From: Solirubrobacterales bacterium
GTDB taxonomy: Bacteria > Actinomycetota > Thermoleophilia > Solirubrobacterales > 70-9
Length of the DNA stretch: 64,000 nucleotides
Direction of reading: 5' to 3'
Assembly: GCA_036276255.1 (NCBI GenBank)
Contig: DASUPK010000050.1
Coordinates: forward strand, 26,093 to 90,092
In this document: positions 10,957 through 62,326 of the stretch, piece by piece
Layout of the letters: every line of letters begins with the position of its first letter
Position numbering within the stretch: the stretch's first letter is position 1
Notes under the pieces: generated by a model
Seen by the model: the letters and a program-made list of their open reading frames with translations, nothing else
Databases searched by the model: none
Told to the model about the DNA's origin: nothing
Program-made: the position numbers and the translations under genes

Positions 10957-11388
10957 GTGATGGCCGATCTCCACCCCGAGGCCCGCAAGCTGATCGAGTC
11001 AGGACGGCTCGCCCACATGGTCACGCTCAACCCTGACGGTGGCCCCCAGGTGAGCTGCGTCTGGGTCGGCTTGGACGGGGACGACATCGTGAGCGGGCAT
11101 TTGCCGCGCAACCAGAAGGTGAAGAACGTGGAGCGCGACGGGCGCGTGGCGATCTCGATCGAGACGGACACCGTCAGCGAAATGGGGCTGATCGAATACC
11201 TGGTCGTCCGCGGGACCGCGCGGGTTGAGGAGGGAGGCGCGGCGGAGTTGCTGCAGCGGCTCGCGCACACCTACCTCGGGCCGGACGTGAAGTTCCCGCC
11301 CATGGACGACCCGCCCGCCGGATACGTCATCCGGACCACTCCGGAGAAGGTCGGCGGGGTCGGGCCGTGGACGGGCAAGAGCGTCTAG
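10957..11388 (+). CDS. PPOX-class (pyridoxamine 5'-phosphate oxidase-like) probable F420-dependent enzyme
   Basis: 143 aa. LAHMVTLNPDGGPQVSCVWVGLDGDDIV...NVERDGRVAISI pattern of Rv1155-like split-barrel proteins. ATG 10960 is an alternative start. Confidence 0.78.
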   Translation: MMADLHPEARKLIESGRLAHMVTLNPDGGPQVSCVWVGLDGDDIVSGHLPRNQKVKNVERDGRVAISIETDTVSEMGLIEYLVVRGTARVEEGGAAELLQRLAHTYLGPDVKFPPMDDPPAGYVIRTTPEKVGGVGPWTGKSV

Positions 11389-11410
11389 CGGCCACCGGGC
11401 GAAGCCGGGC
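11385..11410 (+). repeat. collapsed short copy of the CTAGCGGCC...GCGAAGCC repeat family
   Basis: CTAGCGGCCACCGGGCGAAGCCGGGC. The family 5' end (CTAGCGGCCACC.GG) is fused directly to the 3' GCGAAGCCG motif. Its TAG is the stop codon of the PPOX gene. Confidence 0.5.
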
Positions 11411-11424
11411 ATACTCTCGCCGCA

Positions 11425-26012: not shown

Positions 26013-27269
26013 ATGCAACAGCTTTCAGAGAACGAGTTCCTGTTCACCTCCGAATCCGTCACCGAGGGCCATCCGGACAAGGTCTGCGACCAGATCTCCG
26101 ACGGCGTCCTCGACGCCGTGATGGCCGAAGACCCCACCGGGCGGGTGGCCTGCGAGTGCCTGGTCAACACCGGGCTCGTGGTGGTCTCCGGCGAGATCAC
26201 GACCGAGACCTACGTGGACATCCCCTCGATCGCGCGCGAGACGATCCGCAAGATCGGCTACGACGATCCCCGCTACGGCTTCGACCACAAGGCCTGTGCA
26301 GTGCTCACCGCCATCGACGAGCAGTCGCCCGACATCGCTCAGGGTGTGGACAAGGGTCTCGAACAGCGCGAGGGCGACAGCTCCGACGAATTGGACTCGG
26401 CCGGCGCGGGCGACCAGGGGATGATGTTCGGCTACGCCAGCCGTGAGACGAAGGCGCTGATGCCGATGCCGATCCAGATCGCGCACCAGCTGGCCCGTCA
26501 GCTCGCCGAGGTCCGCAAGGCCGGCGTGGTCCCGTACCTCGGCCCGGACGGCAAGACCCAGGTCACCATCCGCTACGAGAACGACCGGCCCGCCGAGATC
26601 TCCAAGGTCCTGATCTCCACGCAGCATCGCGAGGAGGCCGGTGAGCAGATGATCCGCAACGACCTCTGGGAGCACGTGCTCGAGCCCGTGCTGCATACGG
26701 AGTACAAGGAGCTCTACACCGAGAAGGAGCTGCTCGCCAGCTTCCTTGTCAACCCGACCGGCAAGTTCGTGATCGGCGGCCCGGTCGGCGACGCCGGCCT
26801 TACGGGCCGGAAGATCATCGTCGACACCTACGGAGGCGCCGCCCGGCATGGCGGAGGCGCGTTCTCGGGCAAGGACCCGTCGAAGGTCGACCGCTCGGCC
26901 GCATACGCGGCTCGCTACGTGGCCAAGAACATCGTCGCCGCGGGCCTCGCAGACCGCTGCGAGATCCAGGTCGCCTACGCGATCGGCGTCGCGAGCCCGG
27001 TCTCGGTGATGGCGCAGACCTTCGGTACCGGGAAGGTCTCGGACTCCGAGATCGCCCGCCTCGTGCAGGAGAACTTCGACCTGCGTCCGGCCGCGTTCCG
27101 CCGCTACCTGGACCTGCACCGCCCGATCTTCCAGAAGACGGCGGCCTACGGCCACTTCGGCCGTGACGACTCCGACTTCACCTGGGAGCGGACGGACCGC
27201 GCGGACACGCTGCGCGAGGCCGCCGGCCTAGCGGCCGACAGGCCGGTCACTTCCGGAGCGGAGGCGTAA
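26013..27269 (+). CDS. metK: S-adenosylmethionine synthase (with 12-aa C-terminal extension read from a repeat element)
   Basis: 418 aa. [29 protein letters not shown]. The tail after ...EAAGL is encoded by repeat copy D. Confidence 0.96.
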
Positions 27270-27326
27270 GCCGAAGCGACTTGCGAGGGTCCGGCCGATT
27301 CGGCCGCGCCTGGTGGCGAAGCCGTC
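27228..27326 (+). repeat. interspersed structured repeat, copy D (full length, most diverged)
   Basis: CTAGCGGCCGACAGG...GCGGAGGCGTAAGCCGAAGCGACTTGCGAGGGTCCGGCCGATTCGGCCGCGCCTGGTGGCGAAGCCGTC. Aligns along its length with copy B (40340-40446). The 5' part lies inside the metK coding sequence. Confidence 0.7.
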
Positions 27327-27810
27327 AGGCGGTTCCCTCGGCCTCGCCCTGGAGGCCCGAGAGGATCGGGGTGGCCCGCTCCACGTTCTGGACGACCTCC
27401 TCCGGTTGCGCCACGCCGGCGAAGACGAAGTTCGATTCATCGGTCCCGGCAGTGGTGAACTCGACGTCGCCGATCTGCATGATCCGCTCGTAGACGCCCT
27501 GCCCGAAGTTGACGTTCTGGACCCGCTGCAGCCGCGTCTCCTGGACCTTCCGGGAGATGATCCCCACCTTGATGTTGAGCCGGCGGTCGGTGATCGTATA
27601 GACGGTCGCGACGCGCTTGACGAAGCCGACGACGATGGTCACCGCGAGGACGATCAGGAAGGTGACGACGCCGAGGCTGACGCTCTTGATCAACGCGGCA
27701 ATGACGCCGGCGGCGGCGCCCACAAGGGCTCCCTTCAGATAGAAGCCGAGAATCGCCCGCCAGGAGGGATGCCCCTGGTAGATCACCTTCTCCCCGGACT
27801 GCAGATCCAC
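27325..27810 (-). CDS. bacterial PH domain (bPH_2/YdbS-like) membrane protein
   Basis: GTG 27810 within ORF 27325..28095. Two TM helices followed by YTITDRRLNIKVGIISRKVQETRLQRVQNV...IGDVEF, typical of DUF304/bPH_2. Confidence 0.7.
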   Translation of the reverse strand: MDLQSGEKVIYQGHPSWRAILGFYLKGALVGAAAGVIAALIKSVSLGVVTFLIVLAVTIVVGFVKRVATVYTITDRRLNIKVGIISRKVQETRLQRVQNVNFGQGVYERIMQIGDVEFTTAGTDESNFVFAGVAQPEEVVQNVERATPILSGLQGEAEGTA

Positions 27811-32676: not shown

Positions 32677-33706
32677 TCGCGAGCGAGGCGAGCTCGAGCC
32701 CTTCCTGCGGCGGCTCGCCGCGCTCATCGGCTTGATCGTGGCGGTCCTCCTAGCGGGGAGCGTCGCGTACTCGTTGTCCCAGAACGTCTCCGTTTGGCAT
32801 GGCTTCCTCTTCTCCCTGGACACGGTGGCCACGGTCGGGTCCGCTCCGGAGCCGACTGACCTGCCCGGGCAACTCACCAAGGTCCTGCTGATCGTCCTGG
32901 GCGTGGGTACGCTCTTCTACGCCCTGGTGACGGTGACCGAGTTCTTCGTCGCCGGGCACCTGGGAGAGATTCTCGAGGAGCGCCGAACCCTGAAGAAGAT
33001 CGAAGACCTCAACGGCCACCACCTGATCTGCGGCTTCGGCCGGGTTGGGCGCCAGGTCGCGCGCGATCTTCAGACGGGCGGCGATCGCTTCGTGATCATC
33101 GACAGCCTCGACGAGAACCAGCACATCGCCGAGCAGATGGGTGCGCCCTTCCTGCAGGGCCGCCCCTCCGAGGACGAGATGCTGAAGGCGGCCGGCATCG
33201 AGCGCGCGATCTCCGTCCTCGCCTGCGTCGACTCCGATGCCGAGAACATCTTCACCTGCCTGACCGCACGCGAACTTCGATCAGACATCACGATCGTCGC
33301 GCGTGCGAGCGTCGAAGACTCGGAGAAGAAGCTCCTCCGCGCGGGAGCCGACCGGGTGATCTCCCCCTACAAGTCGAGCGGCGCGGAGATGGCCCGGCTG
33401 GCGCTCCAGCCGCAGGTCACCGGGGTTGTCGACGTCGCCCCCGAGTACCGGATGGAAGAGATCGACGTCAGCGAGGGCTGCCAGGCCGAGGGGATGACGG
33501 TCGGTCAGGTGCGCGGGACCACCTCGATCGCGGCGCTCCGCAACACCGACGGCAAGGTCCATCCCCAGCCGTCGTCGGACGCGGTGCTGCGCGCCGGCGA
33601 CGTCCTGGTCGCGATGGGAACCGTGGAGGCCCTGCGCAAGCTGGAGGCGATGTTCGTCCGGGGAACGGCGCGGAAGTCCGGGTCGGTGCTCGGGGACGTC
33701 GGCTAG
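32669..33706 (+). CDS. two-TM pore ion channel with RCK (TrkA-N/TrkA-C) domains, non-canonical selectivity filter
   Basis: ORF track 32732..33706. Pore region FSLDTVATVGSAP, Rossmann motif ICGFGRVGRQV, TrkA-C region. TM1 and the basic N-terminus (FLRRLAALIG) continue in frame upstream of TTG 32732. The proposed start is CTG 32669, 9 nt after GGAGG. The canonical alternative is 32732. Confidence 0.8.
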   Translation: MLSRERGELEPFLRRLAALIGLIVAVLLAGSVAYSLSQNVSVWHGFLFSLDTVATVGSAPEPTDLPGQLTKVLLIVLGVGTLFYALVTVTEFFVAGHLGEILEERRTLKKIEDLNGHHLICGFGRVGRQVARDLQTGGDRFVIIDSLDENQHIAEQMGAPFLQGRPSEDEMLKAAGIERAISVLACVDSDAENIFTCLTARELRSDITIVARASVEDSEKKLLRAGADRVISPYKSSGAEMARLALQPQVTGVVDVAPEYRMEEIDVSEGCQAEGMTVGQVRGTTSIAALRNTDGKVHPQPSSDAVLRAGDVLVAMGTVEALRKLEAMFVRGTARKSGSVLGDVG

Positions 33707-33779
33707 ACGGCTTCGCCATCAGATCGCGGCTACAAGCGGCCGCCCCCACATAAGTCGCTGCGGGCCTAGTGGCCGCTAG
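33703..33779 (-). repeat. interspersed structured repeat, copy A (short middle)
   Basis: Minus strand reads CTAGCGGCCACTAGGCCCGCAGCGACTTATGTGGGGGCGGCCGCTTGTAGCCGCGATCTGATGGCGAAGCCGTCTAG. It fills the whole gap between the stop codons of two convergent genes. Confidence 0.75.
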
Positions 33780-40147: not shown

Positions 40148-40342
40148 ATGGCCAAGGTCTGTCACAGCTGCGGCAAGCGTCCCGCGTTCGGGAACTCACG
40201 AAGCCACTCGATGGTCGCCACCCGGAGGCGCTTCAACCCGAACCTGCAGAAGGTGCGGATCCAGGAGCCCGGCGGCGGGACCGCGCGCGTGTACGTCTGC
40301 ACGCGATGCCTGAAGTCGAACAAGGTGACCAAGGCCGCGTAG
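40148..40342 (+). CDS. rpmB: 50S ribosomal protein L28 (Cys-containing, zinc-binding type)
   Basis: ATG 40148 within ORF 39956..40342. [36 protein letters not shown]...CTRCLK. Confidence 0.93.
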
Positions 40343-40446
40343 CGGCCACCAGGGCGCTCTCCTCAGGTGCGGAGGGCAAAGCCCGGAGCGGCTTATGATG
40401 GGCGGCCGCTTGTGGCCGCGATCTGATGGCGAAGCCGTCTGCCTAG
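40340..40446 (+). repeat. interspersed structured repeat, copy B (full length)
   Basis: TAGCGGCCACCAGGGCGC...GCGGAGGGCAAAGCCCGGAGCGGCTTATGATGGGCGGCCGCTTGTGGCCGCGATCTGATGGCGAAGCCGTCTGCCTAG. Starts with the rpmB stop codon. Confidence 0.75.
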
Positions 40447-44115: not shown

Positions 44116-46338
44116 ATGGAAGCCGCCGTCAAGCGCGACTCGCACCCGGGAGCGACGTACGTCCCGCGCTCGTTCGGGACGGGTGAGATCCTCGAGCTGT
44201 CCGAGCTGCTGGGGGCGCCACTGAAGACGACGCCCCGGCCGTCGATCCTCGATGCGCCGATCACGAAGCTGAAGGGCGCCGGGCCGAAGCTGGCGGAGGC
44301 CGCCTCCGAGATGGGGATATCGAGCCTCGGCGACCTGCTGCGCCACCTCCCTCATAGCTACCGGGACCGCGCAAATCCGGTCGGTCTGGGCGAGCTGAGA
44401 CTCGGGGAGGAAGCGACGGTGGAGGTCGAAGTCAAGGGGGCCAGGCTCCGGCCGACCCGGCGCCGCCGCCTGACCATCCTCGAGGCCGATGTCTCCGACC
44501 GAAGCGGGAAGGTGAAGGCCGTCTGGTTCAACCGCGCCTGGCTCGCCGACCGGCTCCAGCCCGGGACGCGGTTGCTGCTCCACGGCAAGCTCGAGAAGCG
44601 CGGCTTTGCCGTCTCCGAGCACGAGTTCCTCGATACCGACACCAAACGGGTTGCGCTGTCGCGCACCCTCGCGTTACCGGTCGGCCTGCACACCACGGGG
44701 GTCGTGCCGGTGCACCCTGCCAGCGAGCGGATCCGGCCGCAGAAGATTCGCGAGTGGATCTGGCAGGCCACTCCGCTAGCCCGGCACGCGGTGGAGCCCG
44801 TCCCGGGTCGCCTGAGGCGTGAGCTGCGAATGGCGAGCGCGACGGAGGCCATCGTCGCTTCTCATTTCCCCGCCGATGAGCACCAGGCGGAGGCCGCGCG
44901 TGAGCGGCTCGCCTTCGAGGAGCTCTTCCTCTACCAGGCCGCCCTGGTCTCGAGGCGCGGCCGCCGCGTCTCCGGCAAGCGGGGCATCGAGCTGCCGCCG
45001 CCGGGAACCGACGTCGCCGGTTGGCTCGGGTCGCTGCCATTCGAGCTCACCGGGGACCAGCGCAGCGCCCTGGCGGAGATCGACGCCGACCTCACGCGGG
45101 AGGAGTCGATGCAGCGGCTACTGATGGGAGAGGTTGGATCCGGGAAGACCGTGCTGGCCCTTTACGCGATGCTGCGCGCGATCGAAGCGGGCCACCAGGC
45201 CGCGCTGATGGCGCCGACGGAGACGCTCGCGGAGCAGCACTTCCGCACGCTCGAGGAACTGAACCGGGGAGCCGCTCCCGCCACGCTGCTCACCTCGGCG
45301 ACGCCGCCCGTCGCCCGCCGCAAACTCCTCGCCTCGCTCGCCGCCGGGACGCCGCAGCTCGTCGTCGGCACCCACGCCCTGATCGAGGGGTCGGTGGAGT
45401 TCTCCTCGCTGGCCGTCGCCGTGGTGGACGAGCAGCACCGCTTCGGCGTCCGCCAGCGCGCGGCGCTCGACGCCAAGGGCCCGGGCGCGCGCCTGCCGCA
45501 CGTCCTGCACATGACCGCCACGCCGATTCCCCGGACGCTTTCGCTGACCGCCTACGGGGACCTCGACACGACCTCCCTGCGCGAGCTGCCGAAGGACCGC
45601 CAGCCGATCCGGACGCGAGTTGTCGACGAGGAGCACCGGGCGGCCGCGTACGAGTTCATCCGCGAGCGCCTGCGCGAGGGGCGGCAGGCCTACGTTGTCT
45701 GCCCGCTGGTGAGCGACTCGGAGGCGATCGAGGCCAAGGCGGCGGAGGCCGAGGCGAAGCGGCTGGCGAAGGGCGAGCTCAGCGACTTCCGGGTCGCGCT
45801 GCTGCACGGCCAGATGTCCTCGGAGCAGAAGTCCCGCACGATGGACGCGTTCTCCTCCGGCCAGGCGCATGTCCTGGTGGCCACCACGGTGATAGAGGTC
45901 GGCATCGACGTGGCGAACGCGACCGTGATGCTCGTTGAGGGCGCGGAGCGGTTCGGCCTCTCGCAGCTCCACCAGCTCCGCGGGCGCGTGGGCCGAGGGC
46001 GGCACGAGTCCTTCTGCATCCTCTTCGGCGACCCCGAGTCGGAGGCGGCCAAGGCGAGACTCGAGGCCATCGCGGGGGAGGGGGACGGCTTTGCGCTCGC
46101 AGAGGTCGATCTGACGATCCGCGGCGAGGGGGAGATCCTCGGGACCCGGCAGCACGGCCTGCCGCGGTTCCGCGCCGCCTCGTTGCCGGAGGACATGGCT
46201 CTGCTGCTCGAGGCCCGGCGGCGCATCCTGGAGCTCCGCGAGCGCTTCGGCTCCCTCGAGGCGCCGGGGATCGGGCCGCTGCTCGACGAGGCGCGCCGGC
46301 GCTTCGGCGACGAGCGCGTCGAGCAGCTCGCGGCGTGA
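44116..46338 (+). CDS. recG: ATP-dependent DNA helicase RecG
   Basis: 740 aa. Wedge/OB N-terminus, GEVGSGKT, VVDEQHRFG, QLHQLRGRVGRG. Confidence 0.95.
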   Translation: MEAAVKRDSHPGATYVPRSFGTGEILELSELLGAPLKTTPRPSILDAPITKLKGAGPKLAEAASEMGISSLGDLLRHLPHSYRDRANPVGLGELRLGEEATVEVEVKGARLRPTRRRRLTILEADVSDRSGKVKAVWFNRAWLADRLQPGTRLLLHGKLEKRGFAVSEHEFLDTDTKRVALSRTLALPVGLHTTGVVPVHPASERIRPQKIREWIWQATPLARHAVEPVPGRLRRELRMASATEAIVASHFPADEHQAEAARERLAFEELFLYQAALVSRRGRRVSGKRGIELPPPGTDVAGWLGSLPFELTGDQRSALAEIDADLTREESMQRLLMGEVGSGKTVLALYAMLRAIEAGHQAALMAPTETLAEQHFRTLEELNRGAAPATLLTSATPPVARRKLLASLAAGTPQLVVGTHALIEGSVEFSSLAVAVVDEQHRFGVRQRAALDAKGPGARLPHVLHMTATPIPRTLSLTAYGDLDTTSLRELPKDRQPIRTRVVDEEHRAAAYEFIRERLREGRQAYVVCPLVSDSEAIEAKAAEAEAKRLAKGELSDFRVALLHGQMSSEQKSRTMDAFSSGQAHVLVATTVIEVGIDVANATVMLVEGAERFGLSQLHQLRGRVGRGRHESFCILFGDPESEAAKARLEAIAGEGDGFALAEVDLTIRGEGEILGTRQHGLPRFRAASLPEDMALLLEARRRILELRERFGSLEAPGIGPLLDEARRRFGDERVEQLAA

Positions 46339-47465: not shown

Positions 47466-47933
47466 ATGGACGTTCTAGTACTCATCGACAAGCTCGACGA
47501 TCTGGTCCACAACGCGCGGCCCGTGCCGCTCACGGATCAGGTGCGCGTCGATCGCGAGGAGATCTACGACCTCCTCGACCAGATGCGCGCCACGATCCCT
47601 GAGGAGATCAAGCAGGCCCGCTGGATCGTCAAGGAGCGCCAGGAGATGCTCGCCGAGGCGAAGCGCGAGGCCGAGCGGATCGTCAAGGAGGCCCGCGAGC
47701 AGCAGGCCCGCCTCGTCGCGAACGAGGAGATCACGCGTCAGGCCGAGCGAGCCGCCGAGGAGATCGTCGAGGAGGCCCGGGAGCGCGAGCGGGAGATCCG
47801 CCTCGGCGCCGAGGACTACGCCGACGACATCCTCTCGACGCTCGAGGTCAACCTCCAGAAGTTCCTGCAGGCCGTGCAGCGAGGCCGCGACCGGCTTCAG
47901 GGCCGCGAGCGCGAGCCGTCAGAGATTGGCTAG
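47466..47933 (+). CDS. conserved coiled-coil protein (ATP-synthase-b/DivIVA-like heptads), function unknown
   Basis: 155 aa. Highly charged E/R/K/A-rich helix. A similar gene follows coaD in actinobacterial synteny (from memory). Confidence 0.6.
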   Translation: MDVLVLIDKLDDLVHNARPVPLTDQVRVDREEIYDLLDQMRATIPEEIKQARWIVKERQEMLAEAKREAERIVKEAREQQARLVANEEITRQAERAAEEIVEEAREREREIRLGAEDYADDILSTLEVNLQKFLQAVQRGRDRLQGREREPSEIG

Positions 47934-48031
47934 CGGCCACCAGGCCGCAGTAATCGAAGCGGCGGCGTAGCCGCCGCGCCTGACGTGGGCGGCCGCTTGT
48001 GGCCGCGACTTGATGGCGAAGCCGTCACTAG
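47931..48031 (+). repeat. interspersed structured repeat, copy C (full length)
   Basis: TAGCGGCCACCAGGCCGC...GCGGCGGCGTAGCCGCCGC...GTGGGCGGCCGCTTGTGGCCGCGACTTGATGGCGAAGCCGTCACTAG. Starts with the stop codon of the coiled-coil gene. Confidence 0.75.
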
Positions 48032-52828: not shown

Positions 52829-53350
52829 GTGTATGCGGAAGGTGGAATCGTCGATCTGGAGCGCCTGGCGCTGTCCTCGGGTCAGGCCCGCGCGCTCGAT
52901 CTCGAGGTCGCGCTCGACCCGATCGAGCTGGGTGGACAGGACTACGCGCCGGCGGGATCGGGCGTCGACGCCAGGCTGGACGTCTCGCGGACCAGCACCG
53001 GCCACGCGCTTCGCCTTCGCTTCGCGACCGAGCTGACCGGGCCGTGTGTGCGCTGCCTCGAGCCGGTGGCGACGGAGATCCGGATCGACGCCCGCGAGGT
53101 GGACCAGCCCGCCAGCCGCGACGAGGACCTGCGGAGCCCCTACGTCACGGACGGCGAGCTCGACGTCGGTCGCTGGGCGAACGACTCCGTTGTCCTGGCA
53201 CTTCCCGAGCAGCCGCTGTGCCGACCCGACTGCGCGGGCCTGTGCGCGGTCTGCGGCGAGTCGCTGAATGACGCCGACCCGGAGGCCCACCGCCACGAAA
53301 CCGGCGGCGACCCGCGGATGGCCAAGCTCAGAGATCTGAAGCTCGAATAG
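52829..53350 (+). CDS. YceD/YlbN family protein (DUF177)
   Basis: In-frame GTG 52829 within ORF 52787..53350. CxxC...CRPDCAGLCAVCGESLN motif. Precedes rpmF as usual. Confidence 0.8.
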   Translation: MYAEGGIVDLERLALSSGQARALDLEVALDPIELGGQDYAPAGSGVDARLDVSRTSTGHALRLRFATELTGPCVRCLEPVATEIRIDAREVDQPASRDEDLRSPYVTDGELDVGRWANDSVVLALPEQPLCRPDCAGLCAVCGESLNDADPEAHRHETGGDPRMAKLRDLKLE

Positions 53351-53423
53351 ACGGCGGCCACAAACACCGCCGCCGGATCTACGGTCACAGGCTGCGCCTG
53401 TGACCGGCTACCATGCGCCGCCG

Positions 53424-61690: not shown

Positions 61691-61724
61691 GCGCGCGGCC
61701 CAGGGGCCGAGCCTGACCGCGCGC
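61691..61724. terminator. perfect 8-bp GC hairpin between convergent genes
   Basis: GCGCGCGG (61691-61698) pairs with CCGCGCGC (61717-61724). Lies between the ldt stop (61685) and the stop of the minus-strand ORF (61745). No U-tract. Confidence 0.4.
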
Positions 61725-61744
61725 CTCGATCGCTGTCCTAGCCG

Positions 61745-62326
61745 CTAGAACGCGAGCAGCGAGAAGGTCCGGTTGTCGACCACGTTGCCCCCGGCGTTGT
61801 GGACGATCACTTGGAACACGTTCTCTCCCGGGATCGGCGACGGATCCGCGAGCACATAGTTGACGTAGCCATCGGCGCCGACCATCGTCGCCTGCGCAGA
61901 CCCGGAGGCGTCCGGACCGCTGTTGCCCGCGAAGCGGACGAAGTACTGGCCCTGGGCGAGCCGCTCGAGCTGCACCGAGCTCGTCGTGTTGCCGGGCCGG
62001 AAGCAGTTGAAGCCCGGCACGTCGGTGAAGTTCGTGTTGCTGGCGCCTGTCGTGTTGACGACTACGGTCGCCTTGATCCCACCGGCGCTGCAGAAGCGCT
62101 GGAAGCCGGGGGCGGGCGTCCCCCCGAACTTCGCCGCGTTCCCCGCGCTCGCCACGTTCAGCCCCTGGGCCTGCTTCGAGATCTCCTGATCCGCGATCGC
62201 CCGGACCTTCCTCTTGTCCTTGCCCTTGAGCGCGGCGTAGCCGACGCCCCCCAGGGCGACGAACAGGGCCACGCAGGCAACGATCAGCGCAGGGCTGGGC
62301 AGCAGCCCTCGAACGAGCTTCCTCAT
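61745..62326 (-). CDS. secreted/membrane-anchored hypothetical protein
   Basis: 193 aa. ATG is preceded by AGAGAGGAA. N-terminal anchor ALIVACVALFVALGGVGYAALKGKDKRKV, then a Gly/Asn/Thr-rich domain. High GC3. Confidence 0.6.
   Translation of the reverse strand: MRKLVRGLLPSPALIVACVALFVALGGVGYAALKGKDKRKVRAIADQEISKQAQGLNVASAGNAAKFGGTPAPGFQRFCSAGGIKATVVVNTTGASNTNFTDVPGFNCFRPGNTTSSVQLERLAQGQYFVRFAGNSGPDASGSAQATMVGADGYVNYVLADPSPIPGENVFQVIVHNAGGNVVDNRTFSLLAF

Follow-up and report, generated by a model that had tools for sequence, protein, structure and literature searches.

The stretch of Solirubrobacterales DNA considered here is 64 kb long (GCA_036276255.1, contig DASUPK010000050.1, positions 26,093 to 90,092; hereafter the window), and at 40340-40439 it carries a hairpin-rich sequence whose first three letters are the stop codon of the gene for ribosomal protein L28. 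This sequence is one of four copies of an interspersed repeat, and the locus raises a simple question: is the repeat a mobile DNA that has landed at the end of a gene, or an RNA structure that the host maintains there for its own needs? The answer that we favor, and that we hold to be probable rather than secure, contains something of both. The repeat would be a mobile hairpin element of the general kind of the repetitive extragenic palindromic (REP) sequences and of the REP doublets forming hairpins (REPINs), and its copies would have been retained under constraint as stop-proximal hairpins at the 3' ends of mRNAs.

The repeat family and its fold

An original prediction, made from the sequence of the window alone, had placed four copies of a structured repeat in it. 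When copies were located with a covariance model (R1), precisely these four were recovered, at nearly the coordinates first given, and no other match in the 64 kb was significant. They and their principal parts, with lengths in nucleotides (nt) and covariance-model scores in bits, are the following.

40340-40439, + strand: copy B, 100 nt, 111.3 bits, the best full-length copy
40340-40342, + strand: TAG of copy B, which terminates rpmB (ribosomal protein L28; Pfam Ribosomal_L28), the open reading frame (ORF) ending at 40342
40342-40349 paired with 40412-40419: stem P1 of copy B, as folded
40352-40357 paired with 40402-40407: stem P2 of copy B, as folded
40425-40439: 3' hairpin of copy B, GATGGC-GAA-GCCGTC
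47931-48026, + strand: copy C, 96 nt, 87.8 bits, of the subfamily whose apical stem is GCGGCGGC-GTA-GCCGCCGC, paired throughout
47931-47933, + strand: TAG of copy C, the stop of a 155-amino-acid ORF without a Pfam match
27229-27326, + strand: copy D, 98 nt, 81.8 bits; the upstream gene is metK (Pfam S-AdoMet synthetase)
33706-33778, - strand: copy A, 73 nt, 58.4 bits, with an internal deletion
33776-33778 (- strand) and 33704-33706 (+ strand): convergent TAG stops, precisely between which copy A sits; they end the genes for a polysaccharide-biosynthesis-family protein (- strand) and a TrkA-domain protein (+ strand)

The four copies have the shared ends that had been described for them, namely a 5' end (C/G)TAGCGGCC and a 3' module GGCCGC-N5-GCCGCG-N-CTGRTGGCGAAGCCGTC, which closes with a small GGC-GAA-GCC hairpin. 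A 36-nt core of the 3' part occurs three times in the window and in none of 100 shuffles, and CTAGCGGCC occurs five times where 0.67 occurrences are expected.

Every copy in the window has the same single-strand fold. A long-range stem of 8 base pairs (bp), P1, pairs GCGGCCAC with GUGGCCGC; its first G is the G of the TAG, and the TAG head accordingly sits 0 nt from the stem. The inner stem P2 (6 bp, GGCCGC with GCGGCC) is joined to P1 by unpaired stretches of 2 and 4 nt, and it is followed by an apical hairpin of the form GC-GnA-GGGC-GAA-GCCC-GnA-GC. The apical domain of about 50 nt exceeds that of the published REP definition. On the 3' side, a 5-nt linker separates P1 from an invariant terminal hairpin, GAUGGC-GAA-GCCGUC, within which there is an invariant U.G pair, and the sequence stays invariant as far as the 3' boundary. 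Terminal inverted repeats are lacking, P1 being terminal at the 5' end and ending 20 nt short of the 3' end. The middle of the element, originally taken for a different hairpin in each copy, is instead a module that is conserved and divides into a few subfamilies (GGGC-GAA-GCCC, GGCC-GAA-GGCC and GCGGCGGC-GTA-GCCGCCGC), to which deletions must be added. Both GCGAAGC hairpins match the unusually stable d(GCGNAGC) DNA mini-hairpin, a likeness that is compatible with a single-strand DNA intermediate and is not proof of one.

The repeat extends well beyond the window. Species-representative genomes were scanned with the 3' core pattern, which gave at least 118 loci, and the 8-kb pieces around these loci (numbered with L below) were analysed. 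In about 0.93 Mb of related loci the covariance model finds at least 114 copies beyond the four of the window, that is, at least 118 in about 1 Mb, which bears out the high copy number that the prediction had anticipated. Among the matches listed, all but about 15 come from roughly 35 uncultured Solirubrobacterales metagenome-assembled genomes (MAGs), mostly 'MFD' bins from Danish soil; the other 15 or so are chance matches in coding DNA. Model matches were also obtained at L055, in a lake MAG named 'Actinomycetota bacterium'. The window is about 76-84% identical to five of the loci over long stretches and thus comes from the same clade, and among the matches listed the family is confined to this clade of uncultured soil Solirubrobacterales. 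No existing name could be attached to it, as had been claimed: the whole window gave no Rfam match at gathering thresholds, and under permissive ones the best score for copy B was 18 bits (gathering score 46; E = 0.42) and its lowest E-value was 0.34, at 16.5 bits. A blastn search of a plasmid collection found none. The viral contigs contained a single exact match to a 23-nt pattern, which we attribute to chance because the covariance model does not recognise it.

Base pairing was counted on an alignment (A3) of 63 distinct copies, 93-101 nt long, taken from the window and the related genomes. Some 93.7% of the cells are paired, and when the partners are slid by 1-3 columns the value is only 28-63%; none of 500 shuffles matches the observed values on any of five pairing measures. 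Both sides have changed at 12 pairs, in 70 cells. P1 is 99.6% paired and includes three covarying pairs, for example pair 9-80 (AU in 52 copies, GC in 10, CG in 1), and the states of pair 8-81 (CG 50, UA 6, GC 4, AU 1) and of the apical pair 41-48 (GC 38, CG 19) are similarly exchanged. With DNA parameters each arm of P1/P2 can also fold on itself (GCGGCC-ACCA-GGCCGC and GCGGCC-GCTTGT-GGCCGC); the covariation supports the long-range pairing over these self-folded arms. The search of related genomes has supplied both further copies and compensatory changes that preserve the structure. The fold is also a property of one strand. The sense strand folds better in 62 of the 63 copies, by a mean margin of 7.6 kcal/mol; at variable pairs G.T outnumbers A.C by 19 to 4; and the covariance model reaches 111 bits in the sense direction, against about 21 on the reverse strand.

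None of this conservation is that of a protein. A peptide, MGGRLWPR.DGEAV, can be read in copies B and C only, the lengths of the four copies (98, 73, 100 and 96 nt for D, A, B and C) being such that indels shift the frame between them, as the original prediction had recognised. We reject a small-peptide reading because copy lengths vary throughout the family (93-101 nt, in addition to shorter and longer forms), which precludes a conserved frame, and because the stems covary.

Stop codons and neighbouring genes

The prediction had overlooked that the 5' end of the element is, as a rule, a stop codon. Across the alignment of 63 copies the TAG has an invariant A and an invariant G, and its T is found in about 79%. 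The base before the TAG is C in about 59%, G in about 35% and T in 5%, which matches the composition of third codon positions. At five of the six TAGCGGCC sites in the window the TAG is the stop of the upstream ORF, and of 79 TAG-headed copies in the wider family, 63 have it in the reading frame of an upstream ORF that points the same way (64 of 73 by an earlier count). The window holds 318 genic TAG trinucleotides, 69 intergenic ones and 23 that are stop codons; a random landing at a tolerated TAG would thus meet a stop only about 25% of the time.

The exception in the window is metK (copy D). There the TAG of the element is out of frame; the head is read as CTA-GCG-GCC and the ORF gains 13 extra codons before a TAA at 27267-27269, inside the element. 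The metK ortholog at L037 has the same read-through arrangement, and the annotated C-terminus of MetK would in consequence be partly repeat-encoded. Several copies begin with TAA-GCGGCC instead of TAG. At one orthologous site both forms occur, CCG-TAG-CGGC in L014, L015, L024 and L065 versus CCG-TAA-GCGGC in L086, L095 and L002, and this alternation is a 1-nt indel that keeps both the in-frame stop and an intact P1. At least one copy, that of L046, keeps the TAG even though no co-oriented gene evidently ends there; a divergent start codon is 35 nt away.

The genes upstream of the element are unrelated in function (MetK, L28, a polysaccharide-biosynthesis protein, PNPOx), and a gene-specific riboregulator is thereby ruled out. 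For 88 copies the neighbours are convergent in 40, tandem-sense in 26, tandem-antisense in 8 and divergent in 4. The last two bases of copy D are overlapped by the TGA of the convergent gene (TCA, 27325-27327).

Some features of the surroundings may be recorded here in their own right. Among about 60 ORFs of the window with high G+C at third codon positions, the stops are TGA in 32, TAG in 23 and TAA in 5; TAG thus makes up about 38% of stops in a genome of 70% G+C. Many convergent pairs have abutting or overlapping stops and hence minimal intergenic space. Where the next gene is co-directional, cCTAGACTc or another TANNNT hexamer stands 2-10 nt past the element (L006, L013, L020, L050, L054, L061 and L089; 40443-40456 and 48029-48034 in the window), and this hexamer looks like an actinobacterial -10 box directly behind the repeat. 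The element does not serve as a source of -35 boxes, the spacing from TTGATG to TANNNT being inconsistent (13 to 21 nt), and no sigma-70-like promoter site was found at the copies. Nor is it an intrinsic terminator: no T-run follows either P1 or the 3' hairpin, and a terminator scan found none at copies A, B and C.

Gain, constraint and decay

The flanks of each copy were compared with all the other loci. Most orthologous sites hold the element in both genomes; at several, one genome has it and the other has an empty site. The cleanest pair is L100/L035. The empty site reads GGGC TAG C TACCCG and the filled one GGGC TAG CGGCC...GCCGTC TACCCG, that is, 98 nt have been inserted exactly between two abutting convergent stops (TAG|CTA) and nothing has been duplicated. 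At L029/L031 the insertion is likewise directly 3' of a pre-existing TAG. Two other pairs, L108/L068 and L103/L011, have less clean junctions; their element-less sites have a TAG stop followed by 23-60 nt of unrelated sequence. At the site of copy C, L081 has two TAGs with just 19 nt between them, and L052 a TAG and no element. We propose from the insertions 3' of TAG that TAG stop codons would be the usual landing sites of the element.

Once in place, the copies have been kept. Orthologous copies are 82-93% identical, versus 54-70% for whichever codon position is least conserved in the adjacent gene, and random non-orthologous copies are 82 +/- 5% identical. Copy B has orthologous copies in L052 and L081. 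In copy D, P1 carries two compensatory changes (GCGGCCGA / TCGGCCGC); its ortholog at L037 is 93% identical and has the same private variant, from which we conclude that the copies were inherited vertically and not homogenised. Seven orthologous loci (L002, L014, L015, L024, L065, L086 and L095) show three states of P1, CCAC/GTGG, CTAC/GTAG and CTGC/GCAG, and these are always paired; the series is one of compensatory evolution in place. Together, the identity of orthologs and the in-place compensation imply that purifying selection has acted on both the sequence and the pairing of old copies, which a dead parasite would not show.

The family has also left products of its decay. The copies fall into length classes of 37-40, 96-100 (the mode) and 125-131 nt, and there are in addition remnants, fused tandem copies and copies with nested inserts. 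A deletion between internal direct repeats, GCGGCC and GGCCGC, would account for the 37-40-nt forms, and the 125-131-nt forms contain a nested insert of a second repeat family. Copy A, with its internal deletion, has a full 100-nt ortholog in L090. Orphan 5' ends were considered as the ends of a longer element and proved to be truncated copies only. Two collapsed copies had been proposed in the window, as follows.

11386-11412, + strand: decayed remnant, TAGCGGCCACC fused to GGGCGAAGCCGGG; its TAG is the stop of a PNPOx-family ORF (ending at 11388)
257-300, + strand: possible remnant, the head TAGCGGCC alone, 3' of the stop of a DUF190 ORF; unproven

The first of these stands, since the orthologous site in L113 holds a 43-nt short form of the element. 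The second, proposed at 256, consists of a head only, and the covariance model has no match at 257-300.

Head-like sequence follows two more stops in the window, at 61720-61747 (- strand, TAGCGGCTAGGACAGCG) and 53348-53385 (+ strand, TAGACGGCGGCCACAAACACCGCCGCC); unscored by the covariance model, these may be strongly decayed remnants or chance likenesses. At L008, L045, L061, L109 and L055 a lone extra 3'-hairpin unit (GGCGAAGCCGTC) lies 10-25 nt downstream of the main element, and L075, L025 and L064 have partial copies fused head to tail. These reiterated units and fused copies resemble the 'grouped' REP arrangements of the literature.

The second repeat is an independent hairpin of about the form (A)TG-CGAGGG(C/T)GCGCG-TCAG-CGCG(A/C)ACCCG-TTTnAT. 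It occurs alone after stops, nested in the main element in either orientation, and inside coding regions. In the window it lies at 44644-44673, in minus-strand sense, inside the recG ORF (44116-46338), which it lengthens by about 8-9 in-frame codons relative to the ortholog in L081; in L052 a copy follows the recG stop, where the window has none. Further copies are found at L011:3239, L103:6418, L017, L044, L052, L002, L107, L071, L060 and L061, those of L011 and L103 being inside a Ser/Thr kinase, between HRDVKPENILV and KLVDFGIA.

What kind of element this is

We place the repeat with the REPs and REPINs because of its TAG head on a covarying GC-rich stem, its G-T pairs, its position at gene 3' ends with an excess of convergent pairs, its gain and loss without duplication, and its decay products. 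This affinity had also escaped the original prediction. The closest likeness is to the GTAG-tagged REPs (Di Nocera, De Gregorio & Rocco 2013), a group that takes in the REPs of E. coli and Pseudomonas and the SMAGs of Stenotrophomonas. In these families the head often supplies the TAG stop of a flanking ORF, and the repeats are found no more than 20 bp from the 3' end of an ORF, where neighbouring genes converge or run the same way; G-T pairs occur in the stems, some families have long self-complementary loops with GC-rich ends, and copies are also found inside genes, many of them DNA-repair genes (PMC3733652). The present family is alike in having a (G)TAG head directly 5' of a GC-rich stem, compensatory stem variants, G-T pairs, a high copy number, a position near the 3' ends of convergent or unidirectional ORFs with the head as their TAG stop, and some intragenic copies. 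By the operational definition of Quentin et al. (PMC6006769), a REP has a basal stem in which 7 or more GC-rich bp are all paired, with an optional second stem reached through a small bulge, and P1 and P2 together make such a stem. The conserved GTAG or GTGG of the definition, 0-2 nt 5' of the hairpin (PMC3733652; PMC6006769), is another matter, to which we return below.

REPINs (Bertels & Rainey; PMC3116915, PMC3337134) are REP doublets that form hairpins and are mobilised by REP-associated tyrosine transposases (RAYTs). The present element resembles them in being a non-autonomous hairpin of about 100 nt with two inverted arms, each able to fold on itself, and in its vertical inheritance and its persistence across species. 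It differs in that CGA, and not the reverse complement of the head (CTA), comes after the 3' arm, and in a 3' tail that makes it asymmetric.

From these likenesses a history can be proposed. The element would have spread as non-autonomous mobile DNA, inserting without target-site duplication immediately 3' of a TAG, and the likely agent would be a trans-acting, single-strand-specific HUH tyrosine transposase of the RAYT or IS200 type. Most of the present copies are old, vertically inherited and held near the family consensus by purifying selection. A transcribed copy would form the 3'-end hairpin of the upstream mRNA, where it may block 3' exonucleases or help to define the 3' end, and, since the element has its start within the stop codon, it might in addition affect termination or the release of the ribosome. 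Such an effect is reported for REPs of E. coli at up to 15 nt from a stop; lying less than 16 nt from it, they stall ribosomes (PMC12306157, citing its reference 17). The comparison extends to the hairpin itself, which in both cases is formed by the transcribed strand at or next to the upstream stop; overlap with the stop, however, concerns a minority of the E. coli copies, whereas here it is the rule (about 80% of TAG-headed copies).

Several observations weigh against this account or mark differences from the GTAG-tagged REPs. As to the head, only TAG is conserved and the preceding base is free, and a canonical RAYT-recognised GTAG head is therefore absent. The unit, of 97-100 nt with three stacked helices and an extra invariant 15-nt hairpin on its 3' side, is 2-3 times longer than a REP of 20-40 nt. 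The host belongs to the Actinomycetota; REPs are known from eight phyla, and the main text of PMC3733652 does not contain the word 'Actinobacteria'. The TAG may not always have preceded the element: in the comparisons L078/L033 and L026 versus L015/L086 the three empty sites carry a TGA in the place of the filled site's TAG (L065 has TAG), so that the TAG is either the target or was imported with the element. Copies within a genome are as diverged as copies between genomes, at about 82% identity; they thus differ by about 18% and form no near-identical cloud around a master sequence, unlike active REPIN populations, which makes current mobility doubtful. In the roughly 1 Mb sampled, which amounts to a few 8-kb pieces and a tiny fraction of each genome, no RAYT gene is linked to the copies, and neither a Y1/HUH transposase nor one of another class was found. 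That search used tblastn with E. coli RayT and Y1/IS200 consensus sequences, which gave only short, spurious matches (the one examined, in L108 and matching L068, lies in a GGDEF-EAL protein), and a regular expression for HUH...Y-x-x-N-P, which found nothing in the window or the 8-kb pieces. As for a role in RNA, it is position, strand asymmetry and constraint that would suggest one. The element thus works like a REP or REPIN, yet we do not file it in the GTAG/RAYT family. The family itself is undescribed and its kind is known, the supply of TAG stops by such repeats being already in the literature.

Could the element instead be immobile, a host-encoded RNA module acting in cis (a stabiliser in the 3' untranslated region, a factor-dependent terminator or a protein-binding site) that has been multiplied by rare duplication only? 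Much of what we have described would suit such a module: the strong constraint and the compensatory change in place at orthologous copies, the strand-specific folding with G.U pairs, the occupation of gene 3' ends and avoidance of divergent promoter regions, and the lack of near-identical copies within a genome. We nonetheless judge it distinctly unlikely. The same 100-nt sequence stands after unrelated genes in about 35 species among the matches listed, orthologous sites occur in filled and empty states whose junctions are clean, and the remnants, internal deletions, fused tandems and 13-codon extension of metK are what selfish repeats typically show. Some 12 of the 88 copies have an antisense or upstream position relative to their neighbours, neither hairpin is followed by a U-tract, and a mechanism of dispersal would still be required.

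A second alternative retains mobility and changes its agent. The element might be a palindrome-associated transposable element (PATE) derived from the IS200/IS605 family, the TAG being its left cleavage or target site and the 3' module its right-end hairpin, perhaps left over from the scaffold of a TnpB guide RNA. IS608 and ISDra2 furnish the features for this comparison, and the likenesses are single-strand hairpins at both ends, strand-specific folding, asymmetric ends without terminal inverted repeats, an invariant sequence up to the 3' boundary, and duplication-free insertion 3' of a short fixed sequence. However, the hairpins here are at the very ends, not subterminal with separate cleavage tetranucleotides, and a target of 3 nt is shorter than the tetra- or pentanucleotides of that family. 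In the sampled pieces we found neither a gene for TnpA or TnpB nor a long element bounded by these ends; the Rfam models of IS605/HEARO type do not match; and purifying selection on old copies would be unexpected of dead PATEs. On these grounds we consider a PATE origin quite improbable.

The least tenable alternative, to which we give hardly any credence, is a miniature inverted-repeat transposable element of a DDE transposon (IS630/Tc1-like with a TA target, or IS5-like with CTAG/TAG) whose target-site duplication would include the TAG: of 94 copies, 62 do have a TA no more than 12 nt from the 3' end (7 and 6 in the two 12-nt bins that follow), and in 15 a TA directly abuts that end, TAG lies within 12 nt in 29, and CTAG is the classical IS630 target, but neither TA nor TAG is duplicated in L100/L035 or the other filled/empty pairs, which largely refutes the idea, there are no terminal inverted repeats, and the downstream TA stands at variable distances that are explained by convergent stops (often GTC|TA, read as TAG on the opposite strand; CTA, TTA) and TANNNT boxes (cCTAGACTc).

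Returning to the REP/REPIN-like element that we prefer, its history could have gone one step further. Speculatively, and on balance we think it unlikely, the repeat may have become a domesticated, stop-codon-embedded RNA module that an uncultured actinobacterial order employs across the genome; a single-strand mechanism that targets TAG, without a canonical RAYT, would have dispersed it, and its invariant GAUGGC-GAA-GCCGUC hairpin would be bound by a dedicated protein. A hairpin that starts inside the UAG would have to be melted by the terminating ribosome, and if this proposal were true, the termination of dozens to hundreds of unrelated genes would be coupled to the protection or decay of their mRNA 3' ends.

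The meaning of the family does not depend on so bold a step. It extends hairpin repeats of the REP/REPIN type to the Actinomycetota, and to an abundant uncultured soil order among them, and it comes with a resource, a calibrated covariance model and defined element boundaries. For annotation, recognising the family avoids spurious small ORFs and wrong C-termini such as the 13 added codons of metK. The composite 100-nt architecture is a further point of interest, and the systematic fusion to TAG stops makes the family a good test case for the effect of stop-proximal hairpins on termination and mRNA fate. The family is also a clear natural case of long-term purifying selection, locus by locus, on a REP-like repeat, seen in the compensatory changes in place across species and in conservation well beyond that of synonymous sites, and it bears on the question of whether such repeats are parasites or are beneficial to the bacteria that carry them.

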